NCBI GenBank assembly: GCA_965221775.1
Contig: CBDCSU010000006.1
Coordinates: 608,001-672,000 of the forward strand
Origin: Candidatus Latescibacterota bacterium
Lineage (GTDB): Bacteria > Latescibacterota > UBA2968 > UBA8231
DNA: 64,000 nt
Reading direction: 5' to 3'
The notes below the pieces were generated by a model that was not told the origin of the DNA, searched no databases, and was given only the letters and a program-made list of their open reading frames with translations. Of the stretch, positions 32,181-38,560 are shown piece after piece (position 1 is the stretch's first letter; the number at the start of each line of letters is the position of its first letter). A program made the position numbers and the translations under genes.

Positions 32181-34694
32181 CTACAGCCCGAACCAGCGGT
32201 TGAGCTTGATCAGGAAGATGCTGTCGCCGTCGTCGGCGAAGGCGCGGGTCAGGTCGCCGGCGGGCCGGAACTCGGGGTCCGCCCCGTCGAAGTCGTGGTC
32301 CCGGCTCTGCTGCCACACGGCGAAGAGGGTGCTGCCGGGCCGGTACTCCCAGCGCAGCACCAGGTTGGACCGCAGGGCGCGGCGGTGGAAGTCGGGGTTG
32401 TCCTCGAGGCCGGCGTAGGGGCGGAACTCGTACGAGCGCGGGCGCGCCAGCTCCTTGATGGCGCCGTAGTCGCCGACGCTCACGAAGGGCTGCATGTAGA
32501 GCTGCAGGCTCAGGGCCGGCGTGAAGGCCCAGTCGCCGCGCAGGCCGATCTCGAGGACGCGGCTCTCCAGCTCGCCGAAGATGAAGCGGTCGTCCTCGCC
32601 GTCGCCGTCGTCGTCGGCGTTCTCCACCCACTGGGCGAAGTCGCGGTTGTAGCCGTATCCCGGCCCGATCTCCAGAGACAGCCGCGACAGGGGGCGCAGC
32701 TCGAGATTGAACCCCACCCACGATCCCAGGTTGTCGCCGCCCCGGCCCCACCTGAGGTTCGACCAGAGCCGGCCGCTCACCGGCTTGCGGTCGTCGGCCC
32801 ACACGTTCATGCCGATCCAGGTGCTCGCCGGCGAGAGCATCAGGGGGCCGCCCCGGGTGGCCAGGTCGTCGACGGCGTCGAGGTTGTGGCTGACGCCCAT
32901 CCAGAACCCCCAGTAGTTGTGCAGGTTGTTCCAGGAATTGAAGTTGACGCCCCGCGCCAGACGCTCGCCGGCGAAGTTCCAGTGGTTCCAGAAGTTGAGG
33001 TTGAACCCGGACCTGCGGGCCAGCCACCAGGGATCGAGCTTCTGGTGATAGACGTGGACGCCGGCCTGCACGCGGTCGTTGCGCCGCATGTAGCCCAGGT
33101 CGTTGGCCTCGAAGCCGGGCGACTGGGCGTCCATGTAGGCCTGACCGCCAAAGGCGCCTCCCGACTTCTGGAAGTAGAGGGCCCCCTCCCAGCCGCTGTC
33201 CCGCTCGTCCTCCTGCCCGGCGCGGCTGGCGGCGAAGCGGGTGTAGATCCGGTAGTCGTTGTCCCGCCACTTCACGTGCACGTCCCCGGCGCCGACGTAG
33301 GCCGGCTCGAAGCCGCGGCCGTTGACCGCGGTGAGCTGGGCGCCGGCGGTGGAGTTGGTGAGCAGGTCCTGCTGCACGCGGCCGATGAAGTAGTTGGTGA
33401 GGGGCTCGACCTCGACGCGGCGGCGCACGGTGTCGGCGAGGCCCGTCTCCGCGCCGGTGAGGCGCTGGTCGACGAGGGCCCGCTCGCGGCCGGTGACCGC
33501 GTTGAGGAGACCGAAGGCGGTGCGGCCGGCGGTCTTTCCCGAGATCTTGGCGGCGCCGAGGATGGTGGTGTTGTCGGGACGCTCGACCTCGTCGCTGTCG
33601 TCGGGCAGGTCGAAGCGGGAGGGAGACCGGCCGATTCGCCGCGAGTGGAACAGGGTGGAGGGCTTGCCGATGCCGACGATGAACGGCCCGGGCGACTCGA
33701 AGATCTGGTTGCCCTCGAGGAAGAAGGGCCGGCGCTCGCGGAGGAAGGTCTCGAAGACCCCCAGGTTGAGCACCGCCGGGTCTCCCTCGACCTGGCCGAA
33801 GTCCGGGTTGACGGTGGCGTTGACGGAGATGTTCGACGACAGGCCGTAGCGCAGGTCGACGCCGGCCGAGGAGAACAGGTCGTTGCCGCCGTCGCCCTGC
33901 GACAGGGTGCCGCGGCCCAGGGCGAAGGGCAGGACCTCGACGCTGCGCTGCGGCCGGATGCCCTCGATCCCCTCCAGGTGTCCGAAGCGCGAGGCGTAGC
34001 CGTTGACCCCCCGGGGCGTGAAGCTCCACGCCGCCCACTCGGCGCGGCGCGAGACCTTGCGGAAGACGTTGATCCCCCAAGTGTAGGTCTCCTTCTCGCC
34101 GAAGCGCAGGACGTGGTAGGGGATCTTCAGCTCCAGGCTCCAGCCGTCGGCGCGCATCGCCGTGGCCACCTCGGCGACACTGTCCCAGCCCTCGTCGTAC
34201 TCCTCGTCGTCGAAGAGGATCCCGTCGCTGATCCAGCCCGAAGGCCCCACGGTGAACCAGACCCCGGTCTGGTGGTCGTGGTGGGGGTCGAGGCTGACCT
34301 CGAAGAAGTCGCGCTCGCGCCACTCGTCGCGCCGCGCCAGCCGGGCGGTGACGCTGTCGGGATCGTCGTGGCAGACCCCGGCGATGTAGAGAGCGTCGTC
34401 GTCGTAGGCCACCTGGAAGGTGGTGCGCACCGACGCCGGCTCGCCGTTGTCCGGGTCGCTCTGGGTGAACCCCTCGTGCACCGGGGCGCGCAGCCAGATC
34501 TCCTCGTCGAGGACCCCGTCGAGGCGCGGCGGCGTCTCGGCGCGCAGGGCGCGGGCGGTCCGCTGCGGATGGGCCAGCCAGCGCTCCATGCGGGCGTCGC
34601 TGGTGTCGGCGTGAGAGGGCTGTTCGTCGGCGCCGGCGCCGGCCGCCCCTGCGAGGAGAAGCGCGGCGGCCAGGGCCGCAATCGATCGGTGCAT
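32181..34694 (-). CDS. DUF5916 / CBM9-like outer membrane protein
   Basis: Signal peptide, LDG.LDE..W, TVNPDFGQVE.D, ERRPFFLEG, SRRIG, NLVLRWEYRPGS. Confidence 0.85.
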   Translation of the reverse strand: MHRSIAALAAALLLAGAAGAGADEQPSHADTSDARMERWLAHPQRTARALRAETPPRLDGVLDEEIWLRAPVHEGFTQSDPDNGEPASVRTTFQVAYDDDALYIAGVCHDDPDSVTARLARRDEWRERDFFEVSLDPHHDHQTGVWFTVGPSGWISDGILFDDEEYDEGWDSVAEVATAMRADGWSLELKIPYHVLRFGEKETYTWGINVFRKVSRRAEWAAWSFTPRGVNGYASRFGHLEGIEGIRPQRSVEVLPFALGRGTLSQGDGGNDLFSSAGVDLRYGLSSNISVNATVNPDFGQVEGDPAVLNLGVFETFLRERRPFFLEGNQIFESPGPFIVGIGKPSTLFHSRRIGRSPSRFDLPDDSDEVERPDNTTILGAAKISGKTAGRTAFGLLNAVTGRERALVDQRLTGAETGLADTVRRRVEVEPLTNYFIGRVQQDLLTNSTAGAQLTAVNGRGFEPAYVGAGDVHVKWRDNDYRIYTRFAASRAGQEDERDSGWEGALYFQKSGGAFGGQAYMDAQSPGFEANDLGYMRRNDRVQAGVHVYHQKLDPWWLARRSGFNLNFWNHWNFAGERLARGVNFNSWNNLHNYWGFWMGVSHNLDAVDDLATRGGPLMLSPASTWIGMNVWADDRKPVSGRLWSNLRWGRGGDNLGSWVGFNLELRPLSRLSLEIGPGYGYNRDFAQWVENADDDGDGEDDRFIFGELESRVLEIGLRGDWAFTPALSLQLYMQPFVSVGDYGAIKELARPRSYEFRPYAGLEDNPDFHRRALRSNLVLRWEYRPGSTLFAVWQQSRDHDFDGADPEFRPAGDLTRAFADDGDSIFLIKLNRWFGL

Positions 34695-34814
34695 CGCCGT
34701 CCTGCGGGTTGATGATGTGGGTGTGGCGAGGGACGGATCGAAGCTGACCGGAGCCCTGAAACAGTGTCAACACATCCCGGGGCTGTTTTCATGCAAACGC
34801 TGGCAGAGTGCAGC

Positions 34815-35108
34815 CGGGAGAGTGGTTGGACCATGCGGTGACGCCGGAGCTCATGGCCGATGACGGGCGGGACCGCCCGGGGTGTTGCACTGGCCTGGGC
34901 GGTGATTGCGCGATGAACGGAAGAGACGCGGAGCCCTGAGGCTGTTGCGCTGAGGGGCTGCCGGTGCTGAGTCGCTGTGCCGCTGAGTCGCTGAGCGGCT
35001 TGACCGGACGTTAGGTTGTCAATCCCCTGAGACCGCGTTTCAGTGCGGGTCGATCCTGGGCTATGCGCCGTCGCCGGCGCAGTCGCGCTTGCTCCCCTGT
35101 CTCTCCCG
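34815..35108 (-). ncRNA. Putative structured ncRNA downstream of the DIP1984-family gene
   Basis: 8-bp closing helix CGGGAGAG/CUCUCCCG, GNRA-capped hairpin UGCGCCG-GCGA-CGGCGCA, ACGCGG/CCGCGU helix enclosing a microrepeat. No credible ORF. Confidence 0.5.
34936..34998 (-). repeat. Eight degenerate 6-9 nt units ending in CAG
   Basis: Minus strand: ccgctcag cgactcag cggcacag cgactcag caccggcag cccctcag cgcaacag cctcag. Confidence 0.75.
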
Positions 35109-35120
35109 TCCGCGCCGTCC

Positions 35121-35654
35121 CTACCGCTCGTCTGCGTACTCCACCTCGACCTCGAAGGAGGCGGCGCGCAGCCGCCGGTTGAGCCGGCGGAACTCGACCC
35201 GCGCCTCGTCCAGGCGGACGCGGCAGTCCTCGTAGGGCAGCTCGTTCTCCTCGACGATGTCCCGCTCCTCCTTGTGGAAGATGCGCTCGTACGCCGAGTC
35301 CACGACCTGCGTGTGCAGCTCCCCCAGGCGCTCGTTGAGCGCTTTGCGCGTCTCCAGCGCCTCGGTGAGGCTCAGGTCATCGCCCTCGTGCTCAAGACGG
35401 TGCTCGAAATTGGCCCGCTGGATCGCCGCGTTCAGCTTGCGCCGCTTGTACTCCAGGGCGCGCAGCTGCTCCCGGGCCTTGGAGACGCTGAAACCGGGAG
35501 CCGGCCGGCGCGAGGAGTCGCTGTCCCGGGAGAACAGGCCGCGGTTCTGGCGCGACTCGGGCAGGCAGTCCCGAAGGGTCTTGATGCGGGCATCGTACTC
35601 GCCGCGCAGTTCCAGGGCTTCGTAGAGCCGGACGGTCTTTCGGGCTTCGGTCAT
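35121..35654 (-). CDS. DIP1984-like coiled-coil protein
   Basis: RLYEALELR.E, L.AAIQRAN, SLTEAL..RK.L. Internal duplication of the (L/M)xLxEAL motif; GGAGG RBS. Confidence 0.65.
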   Translation of the reverse strand: MTEARKTVRLYEALELRGEYDARIKTLRDCLPESRQNRGLFSRDSDSSRRPAPGFSVSKAREQLRALEYKRRKLNAAIQRANFEHRLEHEGDDLSLTEALETRKALNERLGELHTQVVDSAYERIFHKEERDIVEENELPYEDCRVRLDEARVEFRRLNRRLRAASFEVEVEYADER

Positions 35655-35736
35655 CCCTCGCCTCCTTCCTCTGCGTCAGCGGGAGGAGTCGAAGGTCGAG
35701 GGGGGTCAGAACAGTGGCAAGGGGGGTGGGGAAGGG

Positions 35737-36113
35737 CTATCCAGGGTGAGGTATGCCACCCCCGGAGCATTCCCCCAACCACTCCTGGATCGTCGTCTTG
35801 ATCCACTCCCACTCGGCGTCTTCCAACATGCGAGACATCGGTTCCTCGTCGGCGTCGTCGAAGAAGCTGAGGTTCTGGCGATGGCGCACAGCTTCATGGC
35901 CGACAGGTCGGCCAAGGATGCTACCGGGCTGGGTCCCTCGGGCCAGTCTTCGAACGGACCAAGAAAGTCGAGATCGACGGAGAGCCGGTGGCCGAGGTGA
36001 AGGGCCACGGCAGTGCCGCCTGCCAGGTAGAACCCCTCCTCGGACAGTGGCGGCCCCAGTTGTCCGAGGACCTCCCTTTGTGCGGGAGACAGGCATTCAG
36101 GGTGCCAGTTCAA
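35737..36113 (-). pseudogene. AbiEii-like nucleotidyltransferase toxin, internally deleted and frameshifted
   Basis: FYLAGGTAVALHLGHRLSVDLDF jumps almost directly to DLSAMKL.AI. The C-terminal LSFFDDA..EPM is in another frame. Confidence 0.7.
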
Positions 36114-36481
36114 GCCCGCGTCCTCCGCCCCCAGACCCCCGCCCGCGCCGCCCGCACCCACTCCTCCACCTGGTCCGCCGGCAGATCGAGGATCAGCTCC
36201 CAGAACCGGATCCGCTTGGCGTCCAAGCCGCGGCACCGGCGCCGGATCAGCCACTGGCGCAACTGGTCCGGCTCGACCCGCTCGCGCAGCCAGGTCACCG
36301 AGTCCCAGTCGCCGGCGCCCAAGATGCGGGCGATGACGAAGTCGCGGTCGGCGGGCCAGGAGAGGTCCTCGAAGCGGTGGTCCCAGAACAGGTCCCGCAT
36401 CGACTCGGGCAGTCCCGCCTCCGGCTCCTGGTCCCGGCCGGCGGACGCAGGCGGTCCAGCGTGTGGGTCAGCCGTCCCCAC
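36110..36481 (-). CDS. DUF6922-like antitoxin partner
   Basis: LFWD....L.....RDFVIARIL..GDW....WL...FW pattern. Overlaps the toxin start. Confidence 0.7.
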   Translation of the reverse strand: MGTADPHAGPPASAGRDQEPEAGLPESMRDLFWDHRFEDLSWPADRDFVIARILGAGDWDSVTWLRERVEPDQLRQWLIRRRCRGLDAKRIRFWELILDLPADQVEEWVRAARAGVWGRRTRA

Positions 36482-36650
36482 TCCGCTCGGTGAGCGCGGC
36501 CGCCGCCGCCTTGCGGAGAAAGCCCACGGCCCCGGGGCTGGCGGCCAGGGCCCCGGCGACCTCGGCAGGCACTTTGCGGGAGAGCGCGAGGAGGGGCTCG
36601 GAGGGGACGGACAGGAACCGGCAGATGCGCTCGATGGTGACGGTCATTCT
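36468..36650 (-). pseudogene. C-terminal remnant of an HTH regulator
   Basis: TIERIC.FL...EPLLAL..KVP.....FLR with no N-terminal helices. Confidence 0.35.
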
Positions 36651-36765: not shown

Positions 36766-38526
36766 TCACTCCCGCACCGCCAAGTGAAGCTCCCGGAGCT
36801 GCTCGGCGGACACCTCCCCCGGGGCGCCCATGAGCGGGTCCTGCGCATGCTGGTTCATGGGGAAGGCGATCACCTCCCGGATGTTCGGTTCGTCCGCCAG
36901 CAGCATGACGATGCGGTCGATGCCGGGGGCGATGCCGCCGTGGGGAGGGGCGCCGAAGCGCAGGGCGCGGATCATGCAGCCAAACCGGCGCTCCACCTCC
37001 TGCCGCGGGTACCCGGCGATCTCGAAGGCCTTGTACATGATGTCGGGCCGGTGGTTGCGGATGGCGCCGCTCGACAGCTCGACGCCGTTGCAGACGATGT
37101 CGTACTGGTACGCCTTGATCTCCAGCGGCGGCTGCGTCTCCAGGGCCTCCATCCCGCCCTGCGGCATGGAGAAGGGGTTGTGCGAGAAGGCGGCATGGTC
37201 CCGCTCCTGGTCCCACTCGTACATCGGGAAGTCGACGATCCAGCAGAACTCGTAGCATCCCTGCCGCCGCAGTTCGAGCCGGTCCGCCAGATGCAGGCGC
37301 AGCCGTCCCGCCAGGGTCGCCGCCTCGTCCGGAGGTCCGGCGATGAGGAGGATCGCCGACCCCGGCTCGGGCGAGCACTCCTCGGCGATGCGTGCGATCG
37401 TGCTCTCTTCCAGGGCCGCGGCGATCGATCCGGTGGCCCGGCCCCCGGGGATGAGCCAGGCCAGCCCCTGGCCGCCGGACTCTCTGACGAAGTCCTCGAG
37501 ACCGTCGAAGAACGAGCGCGGACGGACCTCGAGACCGGGCACGCACAGGGCGCGGACGACCCCACCTTCGGCGACGATCTCCCGAAACAGCCGGAACGAG
37601 GAATCCGCGAAAATGTGTGACAGGTCCCGGATCTCGAGCCCGAAGCGCAGGTCCGGCTTGTCCGTGCCGAAGCGCAGCATGGCCTCGGCGTGCGAGAAGC
37701 GCGGAAAGGGCTTCCCGGTCACCTGCCAGTCGCTGAACTCGTGGAACAGACCGGAGAACAGCTCCTCCACGACAGCGAAGATGTCCTCCTGCTCGACGAA
37801 GGCCATCTCCATGTCGCACTGGTAGTGTTCCCCGGGGGAGCGGTCGGCGCGGGCATCCTCGTCGCGGAAGCAGGGCGCGATCTGGAAGTAGCGGTCGAAG
37901 CCGGAAACCATCAGCAGCTGCTTGAACTGCTGCGGCGACTGCGGCAGCGCGTAGAAGCGGCCGGGGTAGAGCCGGCTCGGCACGAGGTAGTCGCGGGCGC
38001 CCTCGGGCGAGCTGCTGGTGAGCACGGGCGTCTGGAACTCGGTGAAGCCCATCTCCGACATGCGCCGCCGGATGCTGGTGATCACCTCCGAGCGCAACTG
38101 GATACGCCGGTGCAGCCCTTCCCGGCGCAGGTCCAGAAAGCGATAGGACAAGCGCATGCTCTCCCCCGTCTCGGCCTCTTCCGCCACCGAAAAGGGGAGC
38201 GGCTCCGCCGGCGACAGCACTTCCATCTCCCCCACGGCGACTTCCACCTCTCCCGTCTCCATCGCCCGGTTGATGGACTCTGGCGAACGCTCCCTCACCT
38301 CTCCCTCGACGCGGACCACCGACTCGCGGGGGACCCTGGCCGCGGTGGCCGCGGAGTCGTTCTCCGGCGAGACCACGAGCTGGGTGAGGCCGTAGTGGTC
38401 GCGCAGGTCGAGGAACAGCACGCCCCCGTGGTCCCTTCGGCGGTGTATCCAGCCGCTCAGGCGAACGCTCCGGCCGGCATGGCGCCGGCGGAGCTCGCCG
38501 CAGGTGTGAGTGCGATAGCGGTGCAT
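36766..38526 (-). CDS. aspS: Aspartate-tRNA ligase, probably non-discriminating (Asp/Asn)
   Basis: [16 protein letters not shown] (His typical of ND enzymes), [35 protein letters not shown]. Confidence 0.97.
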
Positions 38527-38560
38527 GGCAGTGCTTCTCCCAGGTTGTCGGACGGGCACG

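Follow-up and report, generated by a model that had tools for sequence, protein, structure and literature searches.

Protein-linked large RNAs known from bacteria include OLE with OapA, OapB and OapC, the HEARO/IscB omega RNA and the raiA motif, and the trp RNA-binding attenuation protein (TRAP) recognizes RNA carrying regularly spaced (G/U)AG repeats. The Ro60 protein (Rsr) is paired with bacterial Y RNAs (YrlA and YrlB) in rsr-yrl-rtcBA operons (PMC4201824, PMC7790460). The DUF6847 family has had a crystal structure since 2009 (Protein Data Bank (PDB) entry 3kdq, a DIP1984-family protein of Corynebacterium diphtheriae whose function is unknown) and no known function. Here we describe a DUF6847/DIP1984-like gene and the structured RNA that follows it in a Candidatus Latescibacterota genome; the whole stretch analyzed, referred to throughout as the window, comprises 64,000 nucleotides (contig CBDCSU010000006.1, positions 608,001 to 672,000). 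The module of this gene and its RNA, which we call class I, spans a dozen or more phyla, and we consider it probable, if well short of certain, that the protein and the downstream RNA make up a self-contained, two-part ribonucleoprotein module. Its two parts occupy the following positions in the window:

35654..35121, minus strand: DUF6847/DIP1984-like gene, 177 aa (open reading frame (ORF) list; Pfam PF20935)
35111..34915, minus strand: class I structured RNA, 197 nt including short model flanks (covariance model R1)

A structured noncoding RNA of ~295 nt behind the gene had been proposed in a first-pass annotation of the window. The conserved RNA is real, but it measures 197 nt, is closed by a different helix and has its 5' end 9 nt past the DUF6847 gene stop. 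In a DNA search of 41 related genomes, the gene was found together with ~200 nt of downstream sequence. Gene and element recurred in the same genus; in another genus (genome G011) homology stopped at about window position 34915; and in a different family the first 50 nt of the element were 84–90% identical, compared with 70–72% for the coding sequence. The regions downstream of homologues thus examined carry both a conserved structure and a repeat. A covariance model built from 72 sequences (R1) gave a single match in the window (145.1 bits, E = 8.4e-46), likewise ending at 34915.

Scanning a single genome from each species with an alignment of 20 proteins gave 113 relatives, of which the best 80 loci were taken. 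The contigs of these loci are labeled Latescibacterota, Gemmatimonadota, Desulfobacterota, Acidobacteriota, Spirochaetota, Verrucomicrobiota, Victivallales, Kiritimatiellia, Nitrospinota, Planctomycetota (Uabimicrobium), Chloroflexota, SAR324, Binatia, Lindowbacteria and Desantisbacteria. Two short contigs of metagenome-assembled genomes bear archaeal labels (L044 and L068; Bathyarchaeota and Thermoplasmata). Because the RNA and upstream ORF of L068 are nearly identical to those of the Desulfatibia contig L055, these labels likely reflect mis-binning, and archaea were not counted as carriers. The element was detected behind the gene in 79 of the 80 loci by nhmmer and in all 80 by R1, on the gene's strand every time, mostly with 4–30 nt between the stop codon and the RNA core. 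Three of the R1 matches were cut by contig ends, two were internally deleted, and one genome carried three tandem copies.

The module is an accessory one. Among 151 Latescibacterota genomes, 25 had an R1 match, exactly one each, and carriage was patchy even within genera (3 of 8, 7 of 22 and 10 of 20 genomes). In 21 of the 25 carriers the upstream gene was intact or nearly so; in L123, L124 and L125 weak RNA matches (27–68 bits) accompanied a missing or remnant gene, and in L122 a strong match (127.9 bits) stood beside a broken or divergent one. The converse search, which ran a 19-nt RNA pattern over metagenomes, returned at least 118 stretches. Among the 80 loci examined from them, the full gene was upstream in 48, a gene cut by the contig end in 7 and a partial or divergent gene in 7, while 4 left no room for a gene and the other 14 lacked one despite sufficient room. 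This last group included just two strong R1 matches, one of which looks like a clean deletion of the gene, and most of its other members were chance matches to the pattern. Among the chance matches are L138 and L177, which by eye look like actinobacterial thiamine pyrophosphate (TPP) riboswitches upstream of a gene start. Judged by comparison across genomes, gene and RNA are inherited together and decay together, and we regard it as very likely that the RNA is functionally coupled to the gene.

One carrier, Candidatus Uabimicrobium sp. HlEnr_7 (L091:3019-3973), has three intact tandem RNA copies behind a single gene, each ending in the closing helix P1 followed by U7, and one with a compensatory change in helix P2. 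Copies 2 and 3 retain a few codons of the 3' end of the gene, and a segment of ~330 nt with terminal inverted repeats, resembling a miniature inverted-repeat transposable element (MITE), lies between copies 1 and 2.

Comparison of these sequences yielded the following anatomy for the RNA in the window:

35099..35111, minus strand: 5' strand of P1, GGACGGGAGAGAC, pairing with 34915-34927
34915..34927, minus strand: 3' strand of P1, GUCUCUUCCGUUC (covariation)
35091..35095, minus strand: 5' strand of P2, GGAGC, pairing with GCUCC at 34930-34934
34930..34934, minus strand: 3' strand of P2, GCUCC, the anchor from which the triplet lattice is counted
35064..35081, minus strand: hairpin P3, UGCGCCG-GCGA-CGGCGCA, with a GNRA loop (covariation)
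35056..35058, minus strand: 5' strand of pseudoknot PK1, the CAG of the invariant UAGCCCAG, pairing with CUG at 35043-35041 in the P4 loop
35031..35051, minus strand: hairpin P4, GACCCGC-ACUGAAAC-GCGGUC, whose loop holds the PK1 partner (covariation)
35004..35027, minus strand: P5/P6 region, GGGGAUUGACAACCUAACGUCCGG, a small hairpin with its loop paired to the GUC just after it (a second pseudoknot-like fold)
34938..35000, minus strand: single-stranded triplet lattice of nine AGC at a spacing of 8-9 nt

Covariation supported this fold. In a 9-sequence alignment, RNAalifold identified six double-changed pairs in P1 between two Latescibacterota families, and compensatory changes were also present in the GNRA hairpin and a second hairpin. 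Across 72–82 sequences the 6-bp core of P1 was paired in 99.6–99.8% of cells, and P2 in 100%, with double changes at three of its five pairs (GC to AU, AU to GC and CG to UA). The GNRA hairpin noted earlier in the window is the conserved P3, with double changes at all seven pairs and 95.4–97.7% of cells paired. The three base pairs of PK1, a helix absent from the alignment model, occur as CAG/CUG, CGG/CCG and AAG/CUU, all complementary. P4 showed double changes at all three counted pairs and was paired in 84–88% of cells, the failures being mostly misaligned rows of one lineage. P5 (84–87% paired) and P6 (80–82% paired, with double changes at four of four pairs, e.g. GACG/CGUC and GAUA/UAUC) form the least certain part of the model. 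Taken together, P1 to P6 with PK1 were paired in 91.2% of cells in a MAFFT alignment, compared with 80.5% in shuffles (none of 500 reached the observed value) and 38–46% with slid partners, and double changes occurred at 24 of 31 pairs; in the model-fitted alignment the figures were 93.5% and 79.9% for shuffles.

Several features of the element depend on the strand. G-U pairs are tolerated on the gene's strand only, for example in P1 and P3 (GU in 10–11 cells, UG in 12–18 cells), where the other strand would have A-C mismatches, and the GNRA loop and the U-tract are also specific to the gene's strand, all of which argues for an RNA and against a signal in DNA. The unpaired joining sequences are near-invariant across many phyla. 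Of 129 distinct contexts, 60 have a U-rich tract just behind P1, compared with 7 and 10 of 129 in control windows, so that in about half of the lineages the element looks like the terminator-bearing 3' end of a transcript. On this comparative evidence, that the element is a real, functional RNA seems to us close to certain.

These data also revise the anatomy first proposed for the window. The strings on which it was built are present: CGGGAGAG at 35108-35101, CUCUCCCG at 34822-34815, the GNRA hairpin at 35081-35064 and GGGCGG-UC-CCGCCC near 34866-34879. However, the pairing of the first two, thought to close a 295-nt domain, is not preserved, since the nearest relative, genome G004, has CGGAAGAG as 5' arm and CACUCCCCGGG in the region of the 3' arm with no compensation, and the 5' arm pairs with GUCUCUUCCGUUC (34927-34915). 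The ACGCGG/CCGCGU helix thought to bracket the repeats fails in the other Latescibacterota family, in which AAAAGCCAU stands at the 5' arm and is unable to pair with the invariant CCGCGU; our model places GCGG in P4 and CCGCGU in the P2 and P1 3' strands. The segment 34914-34815, with its GGGCGG/CCGCCC repeat, lies outside the conserved element, G011 homology and R1 both ending at ~34915.

The CAG microrepeat seen in the window (~35000-34938) turned out to be a local, fully occupied form of a lattice of AGC triplets that runs through the whole family. AGC occurs 5.3 times per 88 nt in class I, compared with 1.8 expected from composition, and the spacings between triplets peak at 8–9, 15–17 and 23–25 nt. 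In 122 distinct sequences the sites were phase-locked to the 3' strand of P2, with AGC at 8 nt in 102 sequences, 16 nt in 76, 24 nt in 48, 33 nt in 87, 41 nt in 11, 48 nt in 67, 56 nt in ~7 and 63–64 nt in 80. The nine triplets of the window RNA fill all eight of these positions plus one extra site. Both the motif and the period vary with the protein subfamily, from AGC every 8 nt in class I to UAC every 7 nt in class II, counted from the same anchor. That the lattice is the protein-binding site is a plausible conjecture, which we rate somewhat below an even chance.

Pfam assigned the protein to DUF6847 (PF20935) at 42.8 bits against a cut-off of 27 (E = 6.4e-11) in two matched stretches, both aligning to the C-terminal half of the profile, which points to a tandem duplication and bears out the internal duplication noticed at first inspection; two in-frame matches in G011 are likewise consistent with duplication. 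The NCBIfam profile DIP1984_fam (NF038048) matched over positions 2–148 of 149 at 40 bits (E = 4.1e-10) and its cut-off of 70 was not reached, so that by this profile the window protein appears to be a relative and not a member of that family. A PADLOC scan of the protein matched no family. An AlphaFold2 model (predicted local distance difference test, pLDDT, 87.8) retrieved only 3kdq from the PDB with Foldseek (E = 1.7e-4, template modeling (TM) score 0.67–0.78, 20% identity), and at E ≤ 0.001 nothing else, including ToxN/AbiQ-type or other nucleases, was similar; a PDB sequence search also returned 3kdq alone (E = 0.33). When self-association was predicted with four copies, the interface score ipSAE was 0.67, compared with 0.36 for the best control, and the interface was that of a symmetric dimer, with at least 89% of contacts agreeing between runs and a partner pLDDT of at least 80. 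Of the proteins on which the ipSAE mark was calibrated, with two copies each, 20 of the 30 solved as pairs attain it, as does 1 of the 23 solved as single chains. Because 3kdq is a solved relative, this predicted association may reflect memory of the predictor. The 20-protein alignment shows repeated R(R/K)xLN motifs with Arg, Lys and Asn residues that are invariant, and we infer that these residues could bind RNA.

Among 781 candidates collected, 549 were relatives at E ≤ 0.001, and the 120 matches listed were mostly 57–67% identical. The ESM Atlas ranked a 'Siphovirus Gp157' cluster second (score 0.94), which we note only as a lead. A DIP1984-family gene is present in L253, L262 and 341 records of small Acinetobacter plasmids; in some records it is annotated as 'septicolysin', and PMC5559437 treats a DIP1984-family gene as a putative cytolysin or virulence factor. 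Because of the predicted helical fold and the linked RNA, this label looks unfounded and is probably a misnomer.

Two sister classes of RNA extended the association to other branches of the family. Class II, recovered from 7–8 metagenome loci, has P1, P2, the 5' core and the GNRA hairpin of class I but a different middle; its UAC triplets stand at 8, 15, 22, 30, 37, 44, 51 and 58 nt from P2, and it follows a protein ~40% identical to that of the window. Class III comprises 13 loci behind canonical DUF6847/DIP1984 genes, from two Latescibacterota genomes and from plasmids of Picosynechococcus, Paracoccus, Acinetobacter, Psychrobacter, Streptomyces, Mycobacterium/Mycolicibacterium and Enterococcus. 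Conserved motifs lay directly downstream of the gene in all 13, and in the 10 loci with an annotated downstream neighbor they fell within 259–622 nt free of annotated genes. Motifs common to these loci include GGCGAGUGCACAA, ACCACGUGCAG and a series of NAC triplets; the outer closing helix is entirely different in sequence in each lineage, and the inner helix covaries in six variants. R1 found nothing beside a canonical DUF6847 gene, so class III requires a different model. Across the three classes, these sequences indicate that a downstream, scaffolded RNA with a triplet ruler may be a property of the whole DUF6847 family.

Several class III RNAs contain a hairpin with GGUUCGAnUCC, resembling the T-loop of tRNA. 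ARAGORN found no tRNA or tmRNA in the class III locus L244. On the Acinetobacter baumannii plasmid p2VB280821 (L257:1-1850) the order is rtcB, a gene for a 216-aa protein without Pfam family, the DIP1984-family gene, a 259-nt gap with the class III RNA, and rtcA; gene and RNA are here inside an RNA-repair operon. A G-tract motif, GAGGGYGGGNNCGGGG, lies just 3' of the class III RNA on cyanobacterial, Paracoccus and actinobacterial plasmids (L252, L255, L256, L258, L260 and L261) and is absent in Acinetobacter.

We propose the following model. Transcription of the gene would run on into the RNA, which would form the 3' end of the message and fold into a domain closed by P1 and P2, with the GNRA hairpin and a pseudoknotted core, so that about eight evenly spaced triplets could be presented on an unpaired strand. 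The protein, predicted to be at least a symmetric dimer, would then bind this RNA, most likely via the triplet lattice, to give a ribonucleoprotein. Direct binding of the RNA by the protein seems to us the better bet, although not by a wide measure. For the role of the particle, we would guess first at self-control of a harmful protein or at a part in the RNA damage response. A wider proposal, which we offer tentatively and rate as rather doubtful, is that the whole DUF6847/DIP1984 family, from Latescibacterota to the plasmids of Acinetobacter, Enterococcus, Streptomyces and cyanobacteria, forms an unrecognized class of ribonucleoproteins in which each subfamily reads its own triplet ruler (AGC/8 nt, UAC/7 nt or NAC) and which acts in RNA damage control or conflict with mobile elements. 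The first-pass suggestion of an undescribed, co-transcribed protein-RNA module with a periodic repeat is, in turn, strongly supported by co-occurrence, co-decay and covariation.

A number of observations weigh against this model. Co-inheritance would be equally expected of a purely cis-acting 3' element, and the coupling has exceptions in both directions: L187 and L204 are apparently intact RNAs without a gene, and L072 has an intact gene with a broken RNA. Occupancy of the lattice is uneven, the 41- and 56-nt sites being filled in only ~7–11 of 122 sequences, and some members of the PVC group keep just 2–3 AGC triplets. The 426-nt spacer that contains the window RNA folds no better than shuffled sequence (z = −1.0, with 15 of 100 shuffles equaling it). 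Its minimum-free-energy fold closes with P1 (GGACGGGAGAGAC, 35111-35099, with GUCUCUUCCGUUC, 34927-34915); single-sequence folding of the spacer is uninformative, and the support for the RNA is comparative. Classes II and III, with 7–8 and 13 loci, are documented more thinly than class I. The 5-bp complement of the class III inner helix arises by chance in 77% of shuffles, and the weight of class III accordingly falls on its homologous position and its outer helix. The viral contigs searched yielded no match to the RNA pattern or the protein, and tblastn located no copy of the protein on plasmids, so that class I shows no defence or mobility signal. Transcription is hinted at weakly at best: in one coral metatranscriptome a contig from a relative had a word depth of 23 over the RNA, compared with 5.1 and 3.3 over the coding sequence, but DNA carry-over is possible and contigs give no RNA ends.

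Among the alternatives, the one that survives best is that the RNA is a purely cis-acting element of the 3' untranslated region, either an elaborate terminator or a domain controlling stability or decay of the DUF6847 mRNA, read by host factors. The start of the RNA 4–30 nt past the stop leaves no room for a promoter of its own, the U-tract after P1 is well above its controls (60 versus 7 and 10 of 129 contexts), and the gene is preceded by a strong Shine-Dalgarno sequence of its own and by upstream regions that vary, all as expected of such an element. However, neither a terminator nor a stabilizer needs near-invariant joining sequences, a pseudoknot and a phase-locked lattice, and the window and its relatives lack the U-tract. 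We favor a specific protein-RNA partnership because the lattice changes in step with the protein subfamily, because Uabimicrobium retains three intact RNA copies behind one gene, and because the unpaired joining sequences are extremely conserved. We therefore consider the cis-only explanation unlikely, although deserving of serious attention.

Somewhat less likely again is a type III-like toxin-antitoxin system, also raised at first inspection, in which the protein would be harmful when free and an abundant RNA would sequester it on the repeats. The self-contained, two-part makeup and patchy carriage of the module, the frequency of decayed copies, the several RNA copies per gene in one genome, and neighbors that include transposases, Fic, a JetD-family protein, DUF4143 ATPases and a decayed AbiEii locus would all suit such a system. 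The defining features that could be checked, namely RNA position, repeat type and a nuclease fold, nevertheless fail. The RNA follows the protein gene in each of the 80 loci, whereas a type III antitoxin RNA precedes the toxin gene; the repeats are 8-nt lattice units within one folded RNA and not tandem units of ~35 nt, and neither Foldseek (ToxN/AbiQ or other nucleases) nor PADLOC linked the protein to a known toxin. Moreover, intact RNAs without a gene are rare, the reverse case of L072, with its intact gene and broken RNA, would be expected to be lethal under a toxin model, and in Latescibacterota the module has a fixed chromosomal position behind aspS.

We hold it to be more doubtful still that the particle serves an RNA damage or quality-control response as a functional analogue of Ro60 with Y RNAs. 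This idea draws on the rtcB-to-rtcA gene order of A. baumannii p2VB280821, on the T-loop-like hairpin of several class III RNAs, on closure of the RNA by pairing of its own ends, as in Y RNAs, and on the presence of a DUF6847 gene in Deinococcus radiodurans, a known Ro/Y RNA organism. The rtc context, however, was found in 1 of 13 class III loci and was not among the 25 commonest of the 105 class I neighbor families, no Rfam Y RNA or YrlA matched, ARAGORN saw no tRNA-like gene in L244, and by Foldseek the protein is unrelated to the TROVE fold. It is highly improbable that the element works at the level of DNA, for instance in recombination or as an origin: it does border a gene present in some genomes and missing from others, but its G-U pairs, GNRA loop and U-tract are strand-specific and its compensatory changes keep pairing, not sequence. 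The 295-nt anatomy built on CGGGAGAG with CUCUCCCG and on ACGCGG/CCGCGU is equally improbable, since both complementary pairs exist in the window but relatives retain neither helix, both homology and R1 end at 34915, the minimum-free-energy fold itself prefers P1, and the downstream sequence is wholly different between lineages.

The surroundings of the module vary. On the minus strand of window positions 34600-36500 the order is AbiEii/DUF6922 remnants, the 177-aa ORF, the 426-nt spacer and the start of a DUF5916 gene (34694). The decayed toxin-antitoxin locus reported upstream of the module is indeed there:

36481-35706, minus strand: AbiEii/DUF6922 remnants (ORF list and Pfam)

These remnants of a type IV toxin-antitoxin pair lie directly upstream of the module and consist of a 182-aa ORF, in which Pfam matched only ~35 residues of the 238-position AbiEii profile, and a 123-aa DUF6922 ORF (Pfam). 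With aspS at 36766-38559, and because related Latescibacterota have the module directly behind aspS, the remnant looks like an insertion between aspS and the module. The spacer is single-copy in the genome, its remaining BLAST matches being chance matches of 16–29 nt, which rules out a dispersed genomic repeat, and a leader or riboswitch of the DUF5916 gene is ruled out because the downstream flanks differ between lineages. A promoter and terminator scan of the window found nothing, and no U-tract follows P1 here or in relatives.

No partner gene is conserved at class I loci, whose 103 flanking ORFs spread over 105 Pfam families. DUF4143/AAA_14 ATPases, IS200 transposases, JetD, Fic and DUF3368 are the most frequent of these, ordinary genes of metabolism are present as well, and a small upstream ORF is common to only four Desulfobacterales-type loci. 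Upstream of the DUF6847 gene no promoter or operator is conserved across phyla, only lineage-specific motifs. In eight PVC-group loci (L075, L079, L081, L087, L088, L090, L092 and L099), promoter-like TTGACA/TTGCAA followed by the palindrome GUGUAGGUAGUACAC stands ~40–70 nt 5' of the gene, with a gene for an XRE-type helix-turn-helix protein upstream and a 376-aa gene of unknown function downstream; motif and palindrome may provide local regulation of the module. In L019/L045 (genome G036) a 144-nt insertion separates the gene stop from the RNA. It resembles a repeat, AGCAAAAACCUYCUGGAU...GCCGCGAUGAC, found 3' of the RNA in the sister genomes L016-L018, and the resemblance suggests that insert and repeat may be a small dispersed repeat or MITE of that genus.

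Searches of existing catalogues and literature returned no description of the RNA. Rfam 15 gave nothing credible for the window region at E ≤ 10, its low-score miRNA and snoRNA matches being chance, and nothing in 15 diverse class I loci (gathering score), in class II and III loci (E ≤ 0.01) or in L244 (E ≤ 1). Full-text literature under the names DUF6847, DIP1984 and septicolysin contained, among the papers listed, plasmid annotation papers only, and that on Rtc/Y RNA and Acinetobacter small RNAs did not describe the RNA, although supplementary small-RNA tables of Acinetobacter transcriptome papers may hold an unnamed transcript of this kind. The class I RNA is thus in probably no RNA catalogue, and the RNA-protein unit is probably undescribed. 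In sum, these results add a pseudoknotted RNA of ~190 nt, present in a dozen or more phyla, to the few large bacterial noncoding RNAs with a dedicated protein partner, and they provide a first clue to DUF6847, as a probable RNA-binding protein. A lattice whose motif and period change with the subfamily supplies a concrete mechanistic hypothesis, and the related RNAs behind canonical DIP1984 genes on plasmids of cultivated bacteria make experiments feasible.

The module shares features with several known systems. Its closest protein relatives are DIP1984/DUF6847 proteins such as 3kdq, which it resembles in Pfam match (above cut-off) and fold (TM 0.67–0.78), and behind canonical members, too, lies a structured RNA that is closed and bears a series of triplets. 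The 177-aa subfamily differs in the tandem duplication of the C-terminal half of the domain, and the class I RNA core is unlike the class III RNA of canonical genes. With TRAP it shares evenly spaced, conserved triplets on an unpaired strand, an analogy suggesting that one triplet might meet each repeated protein surface. In contrast, the 8 or 9 sites here, spaced 7–8 nt apart, lie inside a large folded RNA that long-range helices close, the protein is helical and predicted to be a dimer where TRAP is a beta-sheet ring, and the RNA is 3' of the protein's own gene and not a regulated leader. Type III toxin-antitoxin systems (ToxIN, CptIN and TenpIN) likewise combine a protein gene and an adjacent repeat-bearing RNA in a patchy accessory module, but here the RNA is a single folded domain downstream of the gene, with no ~35-nt tandem units, nuclease fold or PADLOC match. 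The pairing of a protein with an adjacent structured RNA whose ends are paired recalls Ro60 and its Y RNAs, as do the T-loop hairpin of some class III RNAs and the one class III locus between rtcB and rtcA; the differences are that there is no TROVE protein, only DUF6847 by Pfam, no Rfam Y RNA match, and a single instance of the rtc context. Like OLE, HEARO and raiA, finally, the class I element combines a conserved RNA structure and a length of a few hundred nucleotides with strict linkage to a protein gene; it is distinguished from them by the absence of any Rfam 15 sequence or model match and by another protein family and architecture.

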